From a virus, in the IMG/VR virus record IMGVR_UViG_3300010234_000004, positions 1-64,000 of that record: a stretch of DNA of 64,000 nt. The stretch is one strand, 5' to 3'. The notes under the pieces are model-generated. The model made no database searches, was not told the DNA's origin, and was given only the letters and a program-made list of their open reading frames with translations. Position 1 is the stretch's first letter. Every line of letters starts with the position of its first letter. Below, piece by piece: positions 2,998 to 25,205 of the stretch. A program made the translations under genes and the position numbers.

Positions 2998-4081
2998 TTA
3001 TGGGTCGGGTAGTCTGGATGTTGTTATTGATATCACCACCAAATGCAATGCAGCATGTCCACAATGCGACAGAACTGATATTAGCAGGGGTGCCAAGATG
3101 GGCACTAATCCGGAATTACCCGACGAGAATATGACTTTGAATCAACTGCGCAAAGTAATCAACGCGTCAAATATCGATAGGGTTAGACACGTGTCATTCT
3201 GTCCTAGCTGGGGTGAGCCGATTATTAATAACGATTTCCCGTACATGTTGGATCATCTGTTCTCGTCGGCCATAAAGGCGGATACAGGATTGATGGTGTC
3301 AGTTGATACCAATGGTTCATTACGTAGCGATGAGTGGTGGTTCAGTATCGGTCGATTGATGTCCTTGTTTAGTAACGAAAGGGACGATTTGACCTTGAAC
3401 TTCCGATTTGCTGTGGATGGTATCGATCAAGCTATGCATGAGAAATATCGACGACGTACCAATTTGGACAAGGTTTTGGCCACTATGGAAATGGTATCGG
3501 CCTTTCCCGCCACGCGTGTGATGAGCCAGACAGTCGTATTCCAGCACAATCAGGACTATTTGAATGAGATAAAAAGCTTGACACAAAGGCACGGTAGTGT
3601 TGATCATTCGTTTGTTCGGTCTGAACGGTTCGGGGGTCGTCAGTTCGAGTTCTATAACGAAAACGATGAGAGCGAGACATTGACCATTGCTGATCCATTT
3701 GGTATAATAGAGACTGAACGATCAGAGTTTGGTATGACCCCATCTTGTGAGTATCAGAAGATAAACAAGGTGCATATCAACTATGATGGACAGGTGCTTC
3801 CGTGTTGCTATTTTGCTAATGCATATGTGGCAGGTAGCAGATGGTCTAAGCTGTCAGATGCTGGAAAGTGGAAGGAAAGCTGGATTGGTAAAGAGTACCT
3901 GAAGACTAAAGATGCCCACAACGCCTTCAATCGTGATCTGTTTGACATATTGGAGGGTAATTGGTGGACTAAGAAGCTCCCGTTCTCTTGGAAGCATTCT
4001 GAGGAGAATGGTGCCGTCCAGTGCAGCAAACATTGTAGTGCCAAAGGTGGTACGTTTCGTGTAGGAGCGCATAGAAAATGA
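2990..4081 (+). CDS. Radical SAM protein with C-terminal SPASM/twitch-like domain
   Basis: CNAACPQC (Cx3Cx2C), WGEP, DTNGS, DGQVLPCC and a terminal CxxxC. Confidence 0.9.
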   Translation: MHDYGSGSLDVVIDITTKCNAACPQCDRTDISRGAKMGTNPELPDENMTLNQLRKVINASNIDRVRHVSFCPSWGEPIINNDFPYMLDHLFSSAIKADTGLMVSVDTNGSLRSDEWWFSIGRLMSLFSNERDDLTLNFRFAVDGIDQAMHEKYRRRTNLDKVLATMEMVSAFPATRVMSQTVVFQHNQDYLNEIKSLTQRHGSVDHSFVRSERFGGRQFEFYNENDESETLTIADPFGIIETERSEFGMTPSCEYQKINKVHINYDGQVLPCCYFANAYVAGSRWSKLSDAGKWKESWIGKEYLKTKDAHNAFNRDLFDILEGNWWTKKLPFSWKHSEENGAVQCSKHCSAKGGTFRVGAHRK

Positions 4082-5430
4082 CGAATAAGATTTTAGGGGT
4101 CAGTTCTGGATTCCACAACGCAGCATATGCATTAATTGAGGGTCGAGAGATACTGAGCGCAGAGGAAAGCGAGCGGTTCACGCTCAAAAAGAATGATCCG
4201 CATCTTAGAACCGACCATTTGGATGGTCTGGGTTGGGATCAATCGGTTTTTTACGAGAAGCCGTTCAAGAAGAATATCCGACGTTTGATCTATGGTCAGG
4301 GGTGGAAAAAGACGAAAAGTATCACCGACTCATATGTCGATCATCACTGGAGTCATGCAGCGGGGGCATATTACACGCGTCCAAACCATTTTCCAGAGCC
4401 TGTATGTGTCGTTATCGATGCTATTGGTGAGTGGGACACAGCGTCAATTTGGTTTAAAAAGAAAAAGGTCTGGAGTATGAGATACCCGAAATCGCTTGGG
4501 TTATTCTATTCAGCGGTGACCAAAGAGCTTGGATACACGCCTAATGAGGATGAACACGTCACCATGGCACTTGCAGCTTTGGGTGAACCCATTCATGCAG
4601 ACGTGTTGATGGAGATGGCGCACGAAAACTGTCATAAAGGTCTAGCATACGATTCTCGATTATTCTTTGCTGAACCAATCGATTTGGCGGCATCCGCACA
4701 ACTGGTGCTAGAGATTGAGGTCAAGAAGATCATGGAGAGAGCGCATAAGTATTCCGAATACTTGTGTTATGCGGGGGGTGTAGCTCTAAACTGTGTGGCC
4801 AATTCAAAAATATATCACATGTTCAAAGACATTTGGATCATGCCAAACCCTGGTGATGCTGGGTCTGCGTTAGGCTGTGCAGCCGCAATTAATGATAAAC
4901 GACTACATTGGAGAGGACCATATCTTGGATATAATATCGAGCGCGAAATCAACCCTAAAGAGGTCGCTGCGCACATTTCTAAACTTGGCGTTGCTGGCGT
5001 TGCTAATGGTCGCGGTGAGTTTGGTCCTCGCGCTTTTGGCAATCGTAGTATTCTCGCTGATCCCCGTGGCGATATTAAACCTACTGTGGACCGCATTAAA
5101 AAACGTCAATCGTTTAGGCCTTTCGCCCCAGCGATTCTGGAAGAACATGCGAAAAGCTATTTCAAAGGGCCAATGAACGAATACATGCAATTCGTCGCTA
5201 GAGCTAAACACGGCTACAATTCCGTAACTCATGTTGACGGAACCAGTCGCGTACAAGTAGTAACAAAAGACTGTGAATCGGTAATCAGGCCGATACTGGA
5301 GGAATGGTATGAGTTGACGGGGTGTCCAATGTTGCTAAATACTAGTATGAACGTGAAGGGTGAGCCTATGCCTAGAAGTTGGTGGGGCGCAAAACACTTC
5401 CAAGTCAAGTCTAAAGTCAAAGTATTTTGA
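4078..5430 (+). CDS. Carbamoyltransferase, NodU/CmcH family
   Basis: EERF-like motif, HHWSHAA, AGGVALNCVAN, GDAG, EFGPRAFGNRSILADP, RPFAP, HVDGTSRVQ and LNTS. Confidence 0.95.
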   Translation: MTNKILGVSSGFHNAAYALIEGREILSAEESERFTLKKNDPHLRTDHLDGLGWDQSVFYEKPFKKNIRRLIYGQGWKKTKSITDSYVDHHWSHAAGAYYTRPNHFPEPVCVVIDAIGEWDTASIWFKKKKVWSMRYPKSLGLFYSAVTKELGYTPNEDEHVTMALAALGEPIHADVLMEMAHENCHKGLAYDSRLFFAEPIDLAASAQLVLEIEVKKIMERAHKYSEYLCYAGGVALNCVANSKIYHMFKDIWIMPNPGDAGSALGCAAAINDKRLHWRGPYLGYNIEREINPKEVAAHISKLGVAGVANGRGEFGPRAFGNRSILADPRGDIKPTVDRIKKRQSFRPFAPAILEEHAKSYFKGPMNEYMQFVARAKHGYNSVTHVDGTSRVQVVTKDCESVIRPILEEWYELTGCPMLLNTSMNVKGEPMPRSWWGAKHFQVKSKVKVF

Positions 5431-12217: not shown

Positions 12218-12246
12218 ATAGTATCATACCAAAAGGCCTAAGTCAA
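12218..12246 (-). promoter_or_regulatory. Sigma70-type promoter
   Basis: TTGACT-17 nt-TACTAT with extended TG on the minus strand. Confidence 0.7.
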
Positions 12247-14897
12247 CCCTTCATCAAGGATTTAGCCTTTTCCCTAACATCATGGTGGATACTACCCATA
12301 TAGACGGCAGTGACATAGATTGACGTGGTTTGATCGGATGTCTCCCAAGGGTCTTTAGCGTTACGTTCAATGATCTTGAATGTGGACCCAGGGGGGAGAA
12401 TCAACTCACGTTCGCCGTGATGCAGTGGTGAATATTTATTGGTTAATAGTGGAACTACAGGCGTTCCCTTTGGCAGGTAAAATCTGAATCGGATTTGAGA
12501 AGCGAAATCGATACTGGCTTTGATTGACGTACTCATAAATCCACCATCCCAATACAACTCGCCCGGAACCAAATTTTCCCTGAATTGCATTTTCGAAACA
12601 CCTAACGGGGGGTTATATGGTGCATCTGTTCCGCGATATACCCACATATTTTCTGGTGTAGTCGGAAGGTCTTCGAAACATTGTAGCAGATTTTGGCATT
12701 TCGATACAGGCATGTAAATATCATCGTTTGCAGCACTAGGGCTTAGGTGATTAATATCATTATCATCAACGGGTGAGTATTCGAGTTTCTTTGGATCAGC
12801 TTCGGCCACCTTATCATAAATTGATCTTAGAGCGTTGTTAACATCACCAGAACTACTCGAATATTTGTGAATAGCGTTCTTTTGAGAAGCCGACAATTTT
12901 TCCATAGCAGACCCGAAATAGTCCATTAAAAATTTTTCAACCTTAGTATCGTTTTCGTACCAATTATCCTGATGCCACTGGCGTCTGTGGGTCTTACCTG
13001 GAATGGCTATAGGACCAAAGGGGTCGTCATTAATGGTGTCGTGTAAAGCTTCGGCTGTTACGGAAGTCGACTTGAGAATTGTATGCCCAGACAAAAGGTC
13101 GGTTGAGGCTGAAGAAGAAATATTAGCCTCAGTATCAATACCGTCCAGCTTTTTGGCGTTATCAGAATTCAACCATTCTTTCATTTTTTTGAGAGGCTCT
13201 GCGTTCTGTTTCATTAAACTGTCAATGTTTGTGTATGATGCAATAGCTTTCATTACCTCGCGCCATGCGTCAAGATCAGACAAATCCGTCGATAGACCGA
13301 CATGATCCAACGTAGCCATTTTACTGAATGACAATTTATCCACGACATACTTCAGGTTTGATTTGTTGAACATGGATTCATCATAACCATGTTTCAACAA
13401 ATTTATAACCATGCCATTGAATGAAAGCGTTTGCATTATGGCTGCGATCTTCTGAGGCATGGTCGCGGGCTTTTTAATCCATGCCAAGGTGTCCTCTTCT
13501 TCGTCACTAGCACCATTAGGTGAAGCAAGCTCCTTAGACTTTGCATCGCCAAGTTGACGAACTTTCCTGATCTTAACAATACCAGAGCCAATAACGCCTT
13601 CGATTGTATCATTATCGCCTTTAACTTTAGGAATGAAAGTGCCATCATTAACATCTAGTTTAAAATCATAATAAAGTGATGCGAGACTGCGGTGTTTAAT
13701 TTTGTTGATATCACCGTTCTTTTTGAACATTCCAACCTCTTTCATCAGAACAACGTCCATTTTAGTGGCTTTAAAAACCTTATCCAAAAAAAGTTTACTG
13801 ACGGATACTGCTGCTGCTTCCTTCCTCCCAGTAACATGATCATTTGGGCTGAGTTCCATAAGGTCGTCGATTTCCTCACGTATAGCATTAAATATGGGTA
13901 GCGCCATCCATACCGCAAAATCATCAAACGTTTTATGACCCAACATCAAGCTTTTAATAGAAAGAGATGTCTTCGAATTGAAATCGTCTTTCGAGTGGTC
14001 GGAAAAAGTAGATTCGGACGTTTTAGCTTGGTCAGCTTTATCAACAAGGTCTTTAGCCTTCTCTACTTCTTTCATTTTTTCTTCATCGTGGTTGAGCGTG
14101 ACCGTATCTTTGGTATTAACGCCACCGATAACGTCTACGATATCATCGTTCGTCAACTGAACTTTCAACCCAGAGATCGCGTATTTCTTAGATGGCGTGA
14201 CTGACTTAACAGGTTTTACTACTACTTTCGGTTTCAGTTCAGCCAAGGTTTCATACGGAAGAGGATTCTTCGTGGTCAGACCTTTTGATAGATCGAAATC
14301 ATAACCCAACGTTTTGAAGTTCTTCGCCTTGAATATGGTAGCGGGAACCACGACCTTTTTGGCTATGAAAAGATAACGTTGCGTCTTACCATAAAAAACG
14401 CCCTTCTCGCCTGCCTTATTCTTCTTGGTTTCAACGTCAGGCTGCTTTACGGGAACGATCTTCATAGACTTCATGTAGGACTTTTTGATCATCTTGGTGG
14501 CGATGCGCTCAGACACCTCCATCATTTTTGTGTTAGCCATACGGAAACGAACGGCGATGCCCTTCAGCTTCGGTCCCAACAACTGCATAGACGTTTCAAC
14601 GAACTTTACCAGAGTGGACAACACTGGACGCAAATCTGACGGGGAATGGAACTTCCAATAATAAGACTTCCCGCCGCCCTTCGGTGTCCTCCCAACGTCC
14701 AAAATGTACATTCCTGCTGTTTTCGATTGTACTAGAGATATGACATACATGCTGTTTTCATCACCATCAATTGAGAAAGCCGCGTGCACTTGCATGGGCA
14801 ATTTGGTGTCATCAGTCATGTAAAATTCTTGAGGTGAATTGAGCGATTCAGTTAAGGAATGATCGTCTATAAAGCTTCTGAAATCCATTGTTTCCAT
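12243..14897 (-). CDS. alt: Alt-like NAD:protein ADP-ribosyltransferase (884 aa)
   Basis: C-terminal R-S-E ART motifs: Y...VN.ALR, VYRG, FMSTS, ERELILP; preceded by a late promoter. Confidence 0.8.
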   Translation of the reverse strand: METMDFRSFIDDHSLTESLNSPQEFYMTDDTKLPMQVHAAFSIDGDENSMYVISLVQSKTAGMYILDVGRTPKGGGKSYYWKFHSPSDLRPVLSTLVKFVETSMQLLGPKLKGIAVRFRMANTKMMEVSERIATKMIKKSYMKSMKIVPVKQPDVETKKNKAGEKGVFYGKTQRYLFIAKKVVVPATIFKAKNFKTLGYDFDLSKGLTTKNPLPYETLAELKPKVVVKPVKSVTPSKKYAISGLKVQLTNDDIVDVIGGVNTKDTVTLNHDEEKMKEVEKAKDLVDKADQAKTSESTFSDHSKDDFNSKTSLSIKSLMLGHKTFDDFAVWMALPIFNAIREEIDDLMELSPNDHVTGRKEAAAVSVSKLFLDKVFKATKMDVVLMKEVGMFKKNGDINKIKHRSLASLYYDFKLDVNDGTFIPKVKGDNDTIEGVIGSGIVKIRKVRQLGDAKSKELASPNGASDEEEDTLAWIKKPATMPQKIAAIMQTLSFNGMVINLLKHGYDESMFNKSNLKYVVDKLSFSKMATLDHVGLSTDLSDLDAWREVMKAIASYTNIDSLMKQNAEPLKKMKEWLNSDNAKKLDGIDTEANISSSASTDLLSGHTILKSTSVTAEALHDTINDDPFGPIAIPGKTHRRQWHQDNWYENDTKVEKFLMDYFGSAMEKLSASQKNAIHKYSSSSGDVNNALRSIYDKVAEADPKKLEYSPVDDNDINHLSPSAANDDIYMPVSKCQNLLQCFEDLPTTPENMWVYRGTDAPYNPPLGVSKMQFRENLVPGELYWDGGFMSTSIKASIDFASQIRFRFYLPKGTPVVPLLTNKYSPLHHGERELILPPGSTFKIIERNAKDPWETSDQTTSIYVTAVYMGSIHHDVREKAKSLMKG

Positions 14898-21963: not shown

Positions 21964-22587
21964 TTACCCCTCATTCGTTATATAGCGATAAATGTATTGC
22001 CAGTCCGAAAACATCGTCAGATGCCCCTCTGCGCCCGCATTAGCGTTATAATCATGATACATCAGTAAACCCTCCAAACCCACCTCGTTAGCCGCCTTGA
22101 CGTGTTCTGGATGATCATCTATAAAGAAGCATCCGGTATCTCTATACTGAGCCAGAAACGGCATTTTATCACCGTCCGTCGTGAACAGATATTTATCGAA
22201 CGCAGTCTCACCAAACAGTCTACGTGTGTTTTTCATTCGGGCTTGTCTGGCCAACTCGTTATTATCCTCGTCATTCCAATCATCACGAACCATTGACGTG
22301 ATCATATGGAATATATAACCATGTTTTCGGTGCAAGAGATCGATGTAGTATATAGCGTTTTTGTACGGCGGCAGTTTGCCGACACTCGTTGACCAATTAA
22401 ATTGCTGTATATAGCCGTATAAGGCCTCTACAGTGCAATCGTAGGTGCTGTGTAAGGTCATGTCCGGAACTTCGCTAACGCGCTTGTGGCCCTTCTCTGT
22501 AGTCATAAATTGATCGAATGCGTAGTACCAATCCATCAGCACCCCGTCACAATCAACCAAAATCACCTTTTCACGAATAGCTGTCAT
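21964..22587 (-). CDS. HAD-family 5'-nucleotidase-like protein (T4 30.2-like)
   Basis: DCDGVL, ITS, K and IDD motifs. Confidence 0.85.
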   Translation of the reverse strand: MTAIREKVILVDCDGVLMDWYYAFDQFMTTEKGHKRVSEVPDMTLHSTYDCTVEALYGYIQQFNWSTSVGKLPPYKNAIYYIDLLHRKHGYIFHMITSMVRDDWNDEDNNELARQARMKNTRRLFGETAFDKYLFTTDGDKMPFLAQYRDTGCFFIDDHPEHVKAANEVGLEGLLMYHDYNANAGAEGHLTMFSDWQYIYRYITNEG

Positions 22588-23012
22588 TATCTATACTCCT
22601 CGACCAACGATTCTTCCAATTCGATAGCCTCGACTTCCCAAGGCGTCTCATCGTAATCACAATCGTAAGTCTCATTTTTCCACGCCAAGTTACCGTCGAC
22701 CCATGAAAGATCACCTCTCGCGATTTGATTGAGATGAACCATCTCGTGAATTATCGTTTTTATAACTTCATCGCGGGTATCCAAATCAGACGATAGAACA
22801 CATTCAGCATACCCCTCATCCTGAACTAATACAGCCTCGCCATGAAAATTGAGTTCATCCAGAGTCTCGAAGGTTATGGAATACATATCAACCCCATATT
22901 CAATCATATCAAATTCATCATGCAAAGCCGTTACTACTTCGATCAATTGTTTTTCGGTAATGGGATACGATTCTGGAAAATCCTCCACTATCACCTCTAT
23001 CCTTATCGTCAT
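22587..23012 (-). CDS. HEXXH zinc metallopeptidase-like protein
   Basis: IIHEMVHLNQ and PWEVEA; start reassigned to ATG 23012 (AAGGA SD and promoter upstream). Confidence 0.8.
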   Translation of the reverse strand: MTIRIEVIVEDFPESYPITEKQLIEVVTALHDEFDMIEYGVDMYSITFETLDELNFHGEAVLVQDEGYAECVLSSDLDTRDEVIKTIIHEMVHLNQIARGDLSWVDGNLAWKNETYDCDYDETPWEVEAIELEESLVEEYR

Positions 23013-23044
23013 TAGTTGAATCCTTATATCTCTGGTCTGATTTA

Positions 23045-23073
23045 ATTGTACCACACCTGAGATAGGATTGCAA
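23045..23073 (-). promoter_or_regulatory. Sigma70-type promoter
   Basis: TTGCAA-17 nt-TACAAT with extended TG. Confidence 0.65.
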
Positions 23074-23106
23074 CCACAAAAACATATGAATAACTGAAAA
23101 AAAGAC

Positions 23107-23134
23107 TTGACAAATCTGAAAATTGCTGTATAAT
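23107..23134 (+). promoter_or_regulatory. Consensus sigma70 promoter facing antisense into a minus-strand operon
   Basis: TTGACA-16 nt-TATAAT with an upstream A-tract. Confidence 0.65.
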
Positions 23135-23173
23135 AAGGTAACATCTCCGGGAGGTCAGATTCCGGATTCCGAA

Positions 23174-23479
23174 TCAATTCCAATCCTTTTCTGAAACAAT
23201 CTGATTAATTTGATTCCCTATAAGATCATTGATGTAGTCATTATCTGAAACACCCTGTTCGATAACTTCATTGTAATAATCATTGTCACTGTTGGGATCA
23301 CAAACAGACGCATCCAGAGTTTCTTCAATCCATGTGTTCTTGATTGGTTCGACAACTTCATTAATAGCATTCAGACGATTCAATTTAGATTCATATCGAC
23401 GCTTTTGATTAGCTTTGACCTGATTTGCTCGATCATTTGTTTTATCCATCAGGCTTCTGATCGTTTTAATATTTGACAT
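23174..23479 (-). CDS. Hypothetical protein
   Basis: Start at MSNIK, overlapping the arfA-like stop. Confidence 0.7.
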   Translation of the reverse strand: MSNIKTIRSLMDKTNDRANQVKANQKRRYESKLNRLNAINEVVEPIKNTWIEETLDASVCDPNSDNDYYNEVIEQGVSDNDYINDLIGNQINQIVSEKDWN

Positions 23480-23606
23480 GTTTAGACTTTCTTGAATATG
23501 AGCCACGACCTTTTTTAGCCTTAACCACTTGTTTTTGGAATAGGGGTGATTGCAAGGCTACAGCCATCAAAGAGCGTGTAGCTGGTGTTTTGTTTTTCTT
23601 CGACAT
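23466..23606 (-). CDS. arfA: ArfA-like alternative ribosome-rescue factor (46 aa; not in the ORF track)
   Basis: MSKKNKTPATRSLMAVALQSPLFQKQVVKAKKGRGSYSRKSKHVKY matches the ArfA core PLF...KKGKGSY.RK.KH; GAGAGGA SD. Confidence 0.75.
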   Translation of the reverse strand: MSKKNKTPATRSLMAVALQSPLFQKQVVKAKKGRGSYSRKSKHVKY

Positions 23607-23630
23607 GGGGTATCCTCTCTTGTTGATACT

Positions 23631-23659
23631 GTTAAATCATAGAGAGGATACAGTGTCAA
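23631..23659 (-). promoter_or_regulatory. Sigma70-type promoter for the arfA-like gene
   Basis: TTGACA-17 nt-TTTAAC with extended TG; weak -10. Confidence 0.55.
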
Positions 23660-23835
23660 CTGTCATCTTTTGTAATCTTCAACAAATCACTTATGAAACA
23701 CCATTTGATGAATTCGGTATCCAATGTCGGGAGCATCTCTACGATTTTGTCATAGGATTTTTGCGACAGGACTCCACTCCGTCTATTGTTATTCAATCGT
23801 GTCATCATTTGGTTCACTGCTTCTCTGCGTGTCAT
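23656..23835 (-). CDS. Hypothetical protein (59 aa)
   Basis: Manual translation MTRREAVNQMMTRL...; ATGA overlap with upstream gene. Confidence 0.55.
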   Translation of the reverse strand: MTRREAVNQMMTRLNNNRRSGVLSQKSYDKIVEMLPTLDTEFIKWCFISDLLKITKDDS

Positions 23836-24068
23836 GCCATTTCCTTTTCAAAATGCTGTTTCCATACCAAAATTGTTTCGGCCTGTTTGGGGGTTACGTT
23901 CTGCTCTTCAAATGTCTGACCATGATCTTCCGTCATATAGAAGGGCGCTTGAGTAGGTGTTGACAACGATTTTCTGTAAAGAGAGTCCTTTATCATCACT
24001 ACGTATTTACGGGGATAAACCTCTTTGAGTTCTAAGTCACCCCGTTCTGTTACTACTTTCCAAGTCAT
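23832..24068 (-). CDS. Hypothetical early protein
   Basis: GGAG SD; ATGA overlap. Confidence 0.65.
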   Translation of the reverse strand: MTWKVVTERGDLELKEVYPRKYVVMIKDSLYRKSLSTPTQAPFYMTEDHGQTFEEQNVTPKQAETILVWKQHFEKEMA

Positions 24069-24283
24069 TCTCCCACTACCTCCAGACGGACGAGAGAATA
24101 TTCGGTCTCATACATCTCGTCCATCTCATTCTCACTTATGCTGTAAGGAGAATGCTCAATTAGGAAGTTAACTCGACGTTCAACTTCTTCATGGATAAAT
24201 TCTTCCGCTTCCCAATATTCTTCAAAGCGTTCTATATTTGGGTTCGGGTCGAGCGTGTCTGATGCGATCGTGACAGTATACAT
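24065..24283 (-). CDS. Hypothetical acidic early protein
   Basis: Fills operon; GAGG SD. Confidence 0.7.
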   Translation of the reverse strand: MYTVTIASDTLDPNPNIERFEEYWEAEEFIHEEVERRVNFLIEHSPYSISENEMDEMYETEYSLVRLEVVGE

Positions 24284-24287
24284 GATG

Positions 24288-24563
24288 TTACCCTCTCTGT
24301 TTCAGGAGTTGAATACGGGCTTGCTCGATCTCTGCTTCAAAGTGAGCCACTGTTCCCGCCATGTTGGCGAACAAGTTGACATCAGCACGCCGCATTGAAG
24401 AGGCCTGATCGCCATGGGTCTGGTAATTCCGACCATGGGGAAAGGCATTTGATACGGCGTTTCGTAACGCCTTTGCTGCATTTTGACAATCAGCAAGCTG
24501 CTTTGAAAGCGTTTCGTATGTGTCACCGTTATTATTAAGTTGAAATTGCATGGTCATCTCCAT
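24288..24563 (-). CDS. Hypothetical early protein
   Basis: Contains PHGRNYQT; fills operon. Confidence 0.7.
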   Translation of the reverse strand: MEMTMQFQLNNNGDTYETLSKQLADCQNAAKALRNAVSNAFPHGRNYQTHGDQASSMRRADVNLFANMAGTVAHFEAEIEQARIQLLKQRG

Positions 24564-24593
24564 TGAAAGTGTTAGTTATGGGGAAGTTGTACC

Positions 24594-24875
24594 CTATGGT
24601 TTTGGGGGTGTCAACCTTTTTCGGAATTTATATTCCATGTTCCAATTGTATTTGAAGTCTGCAAGCTTCTCGACAAGACGGGGAAGTCTAGCCTTAGCTG
24701 AATCAGACATCCAGTTAGCACCCTCCAGATTGCCTTCAAGAAGATTTTCTTCAACACATTGAAGCTCATACCTGTACCAGCGCATGACTTCTTCTAGATT
24801 CAGAGCATCAAGGTGAAGCTCGTTATAGAAGTCGAACGTGTCGCTGTTAGGCATTGTGTATGTTTTGTTTGCCAT
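24594..24875 (-). CDS. Hypothetical early protein
   Basis: Start MANK at 24875, downstream of a promoter. Confidence 0.7.
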   Translation of the reverse strand: MANKTYTMPNSDTFDFYNELHLDALNLEEVMRWYRYELQCVEENLLEGNLEGANWMSDSAKARLPRLVEKLADFKYNWNMEYKFRKRLTPPKP

Positions 24876-24907
24876 TTTATTCAATCCCTTCGTTGTTCTC
24901 TGACACC

Positions 24908-24943
24908 TTGATAGCATAAGAAAAGGGGGCTGTAAACCCCCTT
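24908..24943 (-). promoter_or_regulatory. Early promoter with an overlapping stem-loop
   Basis: TTTACA-17 nt-TATCAA; AAGGGGG/CCCCCTT hairpin spans the -35. Confidence 0.65.
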
Positions 24944-24953
24944 AATACATTTT

Positions 24954-25205
24954 TTAGAACCCATCTTTATTTTTTATGAACTGGATGAAATCGGCCACCT
25001 CATCCATTTGAACGAAACCTTTGATCACGTCTCCATCCGCGAATTCCATCATTTCCGAATCCTCACCGTCAGGCCATGCGGCTATCTCAACGGAGGTATC
25101 AGTTGAGTGACTACCTATACCCGATTGGATGGATACAGTCCACCCATTCGAGAAGGTCATCCAGACCCCTCCCGTACCGTTTATTTCGAATCCTTTGTTT
25201 GCCAT
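24954..25205 (-). CDS. Hypothetical early protein
   Basis: F.NGWTVS...S.EIA pattern seen in small phage proteins. Confidence 0.75.
   Translation of the reverse strand: MANKGFEINGTGGVWMTFSNGWTVSIQSGIGSHSTDTSVEIAAWPDGEDSEMMEFADGDVIKGFVQMDEVADFIQFIKNKDGF

Follow-up and report, generated by a model that had tools for sequence, protein, structure and literature searches.

A short ArfA-family gene behind a conserved leader hairpin in an uncultured marine T4-like phage that also carries a tmRNA

An uncultured marine T4-like phage (myovirus) carries a gene that, at the level of homology, is a member of the ArfA family of ribosome rescue factors. Compared with the E. coli protein, the phage gene appears to encode almost exactly the ordered, active part of ArfA, followed by a normal stop codon, and its ribosome binding site and start codon are buried in a hairpin that is conserved in a related phage. 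The same virus record encodes a permuted two-piece tmRNA. Taken together, we consider it rather probable that the gene product is a functional phage ArfA, trimmed to its ribosome-ordered part, which would carry out rescue with RF2 under control at the level of translation and with the phage's own tmRNA alongside.

The record is a 102.6-kb IMG/VR virus with an estimated completeness of ~63%, and the window, the whole stretch of DNA that was analysed, is its first 64 kb (64,000 nucleotides). Genes for T4-type baseplate and tail proteins were found in the window, confirming the phage setting. The gp6-like wedge protein was 41% identical to that of Phage C48C1 and 32-34% identical to the Melnitz, Mosig, HTVC008M and cyanomyophage proteins, and all of these relatives are Kyanoviridae. 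Elsewhere in the window, an 884-aa protein (12243-14897, minus strand) had a C-terminal match to phrog_3895 (ADP-ribosyltransferase exoenzyme toxin; E 1e-13) and is possibly an Alt/ModA-like host-takeover enzyme, to judge from the match, while a Nol-like carbamoyltransferase (phrog_1601, E 3e-74), an auxiliary gene, was located at 4078-5430 (plus strand) in the left arm.

The earlier note had described a 46-aa ORF containing a quoted peptide, and both were found on the minus strand in the interval listed in Table 1, which includes the stop codon. The comparison with the ArfA family that the note had asked for gave a clear match of the protein, MSKKNKTPATRSLMAVALQSPLFQKQVVKAKKGRGSYSRKSKHVKY, to PF03889 with a score of 44.1 bits (E 1.4e-11), above the curated gathering cut-off of 25.5, over positions 17-43 of the 44 in the profile. 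A six-frame profile search of the genome found the same locus (PF03889, 42.2 bits), and no other Pfam family matched the protein, even at E <= 10. When all PDB chains were searched with phmmer, only E. coli ArfA entries were returned (7OJ0, 5MGP, 5U4I, 5MDV and 5H5U, E ~1e-5). Residues 13-43 of the phage protein aligned without gaps to residues 15-45 of E. coli ArfA, with 16 of the 31 positions identical, and the E. coli core sequence that the note had given agrees with the aligned chains. The proposal of a phage-borne ArfA was thus borne out by Pfam, the six-frame search and the PDB alignment.

Other collections added little. An identical protein, with PF03889 precomputed, was already present in the protein collection. 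The NCBIfam search gave no match, and the PHROGs search gave two weak families only, of unknown function. INPHARED yielded no match by megablast with the region or by tblastn with the phage peptide and a second viral ArfA-like peptide, but these were short lysine-rich queries searched with the low-complexity filter on, so that absence from cultured phages is not implied. A scan of metagenomes contributed nothing beyond the same relative and a single distant locus.

Table 1. Features of the arfA-like locus and the companion tmRNA (window coordinates unless another sequence is named)
Feature	Position	Strand	Basis and remarks
arfA-like CDS	23466..23606	minus	46 codons and TAA stop; ORF list, Pfam, PDB match, dN/dS
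Shine-Dalgarno GAGAGGA	23613..23619	minus	Inside 3' arm of hairpin; sequence and fold
Leader hairpin	23600..23659	minus	RNA fold; Shine-Dalgarno and AUG buried
TTGACA hexamer, claimed as -35	23654..23659	minus	Overlaps upstream TGA (23656-23658); outer stem of hairpin
Upstream ORFan, 59 aa	23656..23835	minus	Stop codon on 5' side of hairpin; ORF list
Downstream gene, ~101 aa	23174..23479	minus	ATG (23477-23479) overlaps end of arfA-like gene by 14 nt
Permuted two-piece alpha-type tmRNA	G000:C1 ~100628-100987 = L166:4629-4988	minus	Rfam and ARAGORN; ~36.6 kb past window end

The gene has two or three close homologues, and for two of them the identities were 89% and 86%. The closest, P0002, came from a 32.7-kb contig, and another was found on an 8.8-kb IMG/VR contig, designated L002, that is syntenic over at least eight neighbouring genes. 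The upstream ORFan is conserved and syntenic in L002 and the L002 orthologue of the downstream gene starts alike; neither neighbour was assigned to a Pfam or PHROG family. The small genes of this run abut or overlap, and the 49-nt spacer in front of the arfA-like gene is the sole sizeable gap.

The leader of the arfA-like gene was predicted to fold into a hairpin of -24.5 kcal/mol (z -5.0), and none of 200 shuffled sequences was as stable. In the 11-bp main stem, residues 23641-23651 pair with 23610-23620 across a 20-nt loop, and the paired segment includes the Shine-Dalgarno sequence, which the note had rightly reported and which lies 6 nt before the ATG. In a 6-bp outer stem, the TTGACA hexamer pairs with residues 23600-23605, UGUCGA, which comprise the UG of the AUG and the next four bases. 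The same fold was predicted for the leader of the L002 orthologue (-25.3 kcal/mol, z -5.5). The base of the stem differs on both arms, GUAUCC/GGAUAC in this phage and AUGACCUC/GAGGUUAU in L002, while the loop is 100% identical and 32 nt spanning it are unchanged where nearby synonymous sites have diverged. The hairpin is therefore conserved with compensatory changes, two sequences being the basis of the covariation. It occurs as a single copy in the genome, and neither the hairpin itself nor a scan of 22500-25000 gave any real match in Rfam. A hairpin of this kind is not a general trait of viral arfA-like genes; the median z was -0.7 over 42 leaders and only this clade stood out.

Because the conserved hairpin hides both the Shine-Dalgarno sequence and the AUG, the arfA-like gene is probably controlled at translation rather than being free of control. 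The TGA of the upstream gene falls within the outer stem and precedes the 5' arm of the main stem by a few bases. A ribosome finishing the upstream ORF would cover and melt that arm, exposing the Shine-Dalgarno sequence, and the geometry in the two sequences thus suggests translational coupling through opening of the hairpin.

The earlier note had instead given the gene its own promoter, with TTGACA as the -35 element. The hexamer is present, but its role as a promoter was not upheld. The sequence at a spacing of 17 nt, TTTAAC, lacks A2 and T6 of an acceptable -10 element, TATGAT is only 12 nt away and the consensus scan for sigma-70 promoters was silent. Moreover, the hexamer overlaps the stop codon of the upstream gene and forms the outer stem of the hairpin; these two constraints, the shared coding end and the pairing with the start region, account for its conservation.

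An alternative that keeps a role for these motifs in transcription, and which we regard as unlikely, places the start within the hairpin, with TATGAT at the beginning of the loop as the -10 and, 12 nt before it, TTGACA in the role of a phage-specific -30-type element. RNAs that begin at the loop would be missing the 5' arm and could be translated, while those from read-through would be silent; in a variant of the same idea, the stem would be an RNase III site whose cleavage frees the Shine-Dalgarno sequence. T4 has such an arrangement, an occluding hairpin with an internal start, for some of its genes (e, soc and I-TevI). Consistent with this alternative, the two phages share TTGACA, TATGAT and every base of the loop despite the divergence of flanking synonymous sites, but for TTGACA the upstream coding end and the pairing with AUGUC provide another explanation. 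A terminator-like hairpin (AAGGGGG...CCCCCTT, followed by a T-rich tail) was observed upstream at 24923-24943 (minus strand), between an 83-aa and a 107-aa gene; it may divide the early minus-strand genes between two transcription units and suggests that some promoter may be needed downstream of it. However, canonical sigma-70 spacing is absent and the promoter scan reported none. The loop also lacks the T4-type late TATAAATA, a motif that was found before the late genes of this phage. The pattern TTGACA-N11-13-TAnnnT occurs 11 times in the genome compared to 3.8 +/- 2.3 times in shuffled sequences, but the shuffles were of mononucleotides, the sites do not consistently precede genes and the modest excess is unconvincing. 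As for the RNase III variant, the continuous stem of 11-13 bp is short for that enzyme.

In E. coli, arfA is translated from an mRNA that is cut or terminated inside the ORF, and ArfA escapes only when tmRNA is overwhelmed (PMC8012679). The residues of E. coli ArfA beyond the active part are hydrophobic and destabilising (PMC8012679). This proteobacterial design, a hairpin-interrupted ORF, a hydrophobic tail and repression by tmRNA, is not that of the phage gene. The note had stated that the phage ORF ends at a normal stop just past the functional core and would therefore be outside of tmRNA control, and indeed the ORF ends with TAA, no strong local hairpin was found in or after it and no terminator-like site was found in 22500-24500. 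With a normal stop and neither a hairpin nor a terminator in frame, the phage gene cannot be gated as in E. coli, through a non-stop mRNA and tagging by tmRNA, and its escape from tmRNA control is a sound deduction from the sequence.

The residues through which ArfA contacts RF2 and the ribosome were recognisable in the alignment. Phe23 of the phage protein corresponds to E. coli Phe25, a hydrophobic contact with RF2, and K25-Q-V-V28 corresponds to E. coli Q27-R-V-E30, the beta-strand that is added to domain II/IV of RF2. In the E. coli complex, the Phe25 contact gives RF2 specificity and the Q27-E30 strand extends the sheet of RF2 domain II/IV (PMC8012679). The basic C-terminal tail, residues 31-43 (KKGRGSYSRKSKH), contains KKGRGSY where E. 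coli ArfA has KKGKGSY, and K42-H43 at the position of K44-H45, the 'KH' motif, which occupies a pocket of the mRNA entry channel (PMC8012679). The protein stops 3 residues past KH, at the equivalent of E. coli residue 48. All five cryo-EM studies of E. coli ArfA found 46-48 residues to be ordered; C-terminally truncated ArfA is fully active, the missing tail serving regulation only, while a 40-residue form is inactive (PMC8012679).

Val16 of the phage protein occupies the column of E. coli Ala18, a residue that matters for function but does not define homology. Replacement of Ala18 by threonine, which is isosteric with valine, gives an E. coli ArfA that binds the ribosome and RF2 without activating RF2 (PMC8012679). 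The column is occupied by G, A, K, R or V in related short ArfA-like proteins, and because it varies in this way, the Ala18 constraint may not carry over to the phage protein and the N-terminal contact with RF2 may differ. The 12 N-terminal residues are also unlike those of E. coli ArfA. The pairing of ArfA with RF2 is species-sensitive, since T. thermophilus RF2 stays closed with E. coli ArfA (PMC8012679).

The second component of the proposed phage rescue equipment is the tmRNA. The Rfam model alpha_tmRNA (RF01849) matched over its full length (1-355) with 106.6 bits compared to a gathering score of 50 (E 4.3e-29), and ARAGORN, applied to the whole record, reported a permuted tmRNA near the far end with the tag ANDNIAYEAPVALAA. 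No glutamine riboswitch was found beside it at E <= 0.01, unlike in phage Melnitz. Searches across the 102.6-kb record for SmpB and for an RF-1 domain gave no match; a RegB search was also without a match, but the RegB model matched none of the control genomes either. BLAST of the tmRNA against 401 genomes sampled from the class of an alphaproteobacterial Denitrobaculum MAG (G007, which holds locus L087) returned only partial matches of 33-100 nt. Two-piece tmRNAs are known in Melnitz and the pelagimyophages, in a paper that makes no mention of ArfA (PMC9004378). PF03889 was found in none of the four closest cultured myophages (C48C1, Melnitz, Mosig and HTVC008M), and an alpha-type tmRNA in none of five other long viral contigs that bear ArfA. 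Since the cultured relatives are without ArfA and the other ArfA contigs are without an alpha-type tmRNA, the pairing of the two is a property of this lineage and not a fixed module.

The mechanism that we favor follows that of E. coli ArfA. When a ribosome has stalled at the 3' end of a broken message, its empty mRNA channel would be probed by the basic tail, KKGRGSYSRKSKH, while the N-terminal half, with the LF and KQVV region, would dock RF2. RF2 would then hydrolyse the peptidyl-tRNA, and the ribosome would be freed with its product left untagged. As the tmRNA is also phage-borne, the phage appears to bring both rescue routes. We infer that the protein binds the ribosome and RF2, supports RF2-dependent rescue and benefits the phage.

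The valine at the Ala18 position is the main reason to retain a second interpretation, in which the peptide would occupy the vacant channel for mRNA, and might bind RF2 as well, without activating hydrolysis. Its role would then be that of a decoy or blocker that competes, for instance, with the host tmRNA-SmpB for non-stop ribosomes, so that phage products remain untagged, or that contributes to host shut-off. The behavior of the isosteric A18T protein fits this possibility, as do the divergence of the first 12 residues and the overlap, within the channel, between the ArfA tail and the site of SmpB (PMC8012679). Nevertheless, we consider it improbable. The phage has a tmRNA of its own with a canonical degradation tag, which argues against blocking trans-translation, and trapping of RF2 would harm phage translation too. 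Moreover, the Phe that contacts RF2 and the beta-strand segment are conserved, and the variability of the Ala18 column in the short clade, with Ala and Gly included, suggests a different register rather than a designed defect.

Returning to the favored reading, a functional ArfA, the codon comparison with the L002 orthologue (14 synonymous and 7 non-synonymous codon differences) gave dN 0.095, dS 0.73 and dN/dS ~0.13, which indicates purifying selection on the arfA-like gene. We regard it as very unlikely that the ORF is only a piece of a cellular arfA that was once captured and is now neutral or decaying, without a function in infection. Its setting among small ORFans, as is typical of hyperplastic early regions, and the lack of an ArfA match in the four closest cultured relatives of the phage would fit such a reading. 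Against it, the dN/dS is 0.13, the start, stop, Shine-Dalgarno sequence and leader structure are intact in a relative at dS 0.73, all of the core motifs are intact and comparable genes are kept in many unrelated viral contigs.

A reading frame on the opposite strand was open in both phages, with 148 aa in the window (23473-23919, plus strand) and 164 aa in L002 (4893-5387, minus strand). The window frame was rejected as a gene, being the shadow of three minus-strand genes, and both the Pfam match and the substitution pattern favor the minus frame. Its conservation is most likely that of a shadow frame arising from codon bias.

Short genes of this type are widespread. The pattern KG[KR]GSYSR identified at least 102 ArfA-like stretches in IMG/VR, and most of the ORFs that contain them have 37-60 aa and stop 5-10 residues past the motif. 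After clustering at 70% identity, the median tail following the motif was 8 aa in 23 viral clusters and 22.5 aa in 26 bacterial clusters, both sets having been drawn with the same pattern and the sample being biased by it. Short, stop-terminated ArfA-like genes are common in IMG/VR contigs but are not exclusive to viruses, because there are also bacterial proteins with short tails, mostly from Pelagibacteraceae. One of these, a 38-aa ORF in the Pelagibacteraceae single-cell genome AG-430-F03 (L133:1492-1608, plus strand), scored 30.2 bits against PF03889, above the cut-off, and is flanked on its 529-kb contig by genes for a response-regulator-like protein and a PfkB kinase. Further SAR11 ArfA-like ORFs of 38-46 aa with a normal stop were seen in L110, L115, L121-L123, L126, L137, L139, L149 and L163.

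Other forms were encountered among the same matches. Many gammaproteobacterial ArfA frames end in ...RQAA, ...SKAA or ...KVA, like the end of the ssrA degradation tag, and these ends might be a built-in degron that replaces the hydrophobic tail. They were found in Halomonadaceae (L109, L114, L118, L125, L132, L136, L143, L148, L155, L158, L160-L162 and L164) and Vibrionaceae (L093, L107, L108, L111, L116 and L119). In the IMG/VR contigs L060, L061, L068 and L072, an ArfA-like core (NPMAKKLSDPKFKPKVVAPKKGKGSYSRKGK) is joined to a basic extension of ~65 aa in ORFs of 119 aa, a fused or extended form. The very large viral record L027 (IMGVR_UViG_3300046616_000314, 561 kb, 97% complete) has an ArfA-like ORF of 82 aa, whose hydrophobic tail is that of the bacterial type, and no alpha-type tmRNA.

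In a survey of 15,259 genomes, arfA was confined to Gammaproteobacteria, a portion of the Betaproteobacteria and 10 Bacillus subtilis group species, and was absent from all of the 2,376 Alphaproteobacteria (PMC11633108). ArfA has been annotated in two cultured phages, Citromicrobium phage vB_CbaS-RXM (g10, OL963731; PMC8953757) and Pelagibacter phage HTVC027P (gp30, MN698241), in the latter of which the gene is transcribed both early and late in infection (PMC12753301). The hosts of both phages are Alphaproteobacteria, despite the absence of arfA from that class in the survey. In our search against PF03889, RXM g10 scored 29.6 bits, which passes the cut-off, and HTVC027P gp30 scored 20.2 bits. 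Phage ArfA genes have so far been known only by annotation, and the present gene appears to be a further member of this group.

For the phage described here, the alpha-type tmRNA and the hosts of the cultured phages RXM and HTVC027P hint at Alphaproteobacteria as hosts. In a broader and more doubtful interpretation, which we put forward tentatively, some marine phages would carry their own two-route rescue kit, consisting of a two-piece tmRNA and a 'pre-truncated' ArfA that is free of control by trans-translation and is gated by a hairpin responding to translation of an upstream early ORF, and would thereby give alphaproteobacterial hosts an RF2-dependent rescue that they lack.

If this broader interpretation is correct, ribosomes would be kept free while host and phage mRNAs are degraded or are cut by defence RNases; the note had likewise proposed a benefit against mRNA decay or abortive-infection RNases. 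ArfA is otherwise a proteobacterial back-up factor, the synthesis of which is wired to the failure of tmRNA, and the phage copy would have dropped this wiring. That only the ribosome-ordered core has been retained, and next to a phage tmRNA, suggests that phage growth is limited by ribosome rescue. There are two further uses for the locus. The protein would be a compact, naturally minimal ArfA with which to define the residues needed for recruitment and activation of RF2, the valine at the Ala18 position being especially useful, and the conserved hairpin that occludes the Shine-Dalgarno sequence and AUG offers a simple case for translational gating in an uncultured marine phage.

Phage ArfA, as judged by comparison with known systems, is one instance of a theme that recurs in the literature and not a new kind of system. 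1) The phage protein shares with E. coli ArfA (YhdL, PF03889) the PLF sequence, the beta-strand segment, KKGxGSY, KH and the basic tail, and its length is that of the ordered, active part. Unlike the E. coli gene, that of the phage has no hairpin of the RNase III or terminator kind within the frame, encodes no hydrophobic tail and closes with a normal stop; the product has Val at the Ala18 position and a different sequence in the 12 N-terminal residues, and the hairpin of the gene is located at the 5' end, over the Shine-Dalgarno sequence and AUG, rather than at the 3' end. 2) Like RXM g10 and HTVC027P gp30, it is a small ArfA-like ORF of a marine phage with the layout RNPxAxxL...KKGRGS(Y/F), but it is nearer to the canonical profile (44.1 bits compared to 29.6 and 20.2 bits), has 46 aa rather than 60 and 58 aa, and is encoded by a T4-like myovirus with a tmRNA. 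3) The short ArfA-like proteins of Pelagibacteraceae are similar in having ~38-46 aa and a normal stop 5-6 residues past KGKGSYSRK, but they are cellular and ~50-60% identical to the phage protein. 4) The tmRNA is permuted and of the alpha type, as in Melnitz-type phages and pelagimyophages (PMC9004378), but Melnitz, Mosig and HTVC008M, to which this phage is distantly related by its baseplate protein, had no ArfA match. 5) Bacillus BrfA is likewise a small basic peptide that places KH in the mRNA channel and recruits RF2 by addition of a beta-strand (PMC8012679), as the phage protein is predicted to do from its sequence. In contrast, BrfA has no similarity to ArfA beyond KH and is made from a non-stop mRNA, whereas the phage protein is a true homologue of ArfA and its gene ends with a normal stop.
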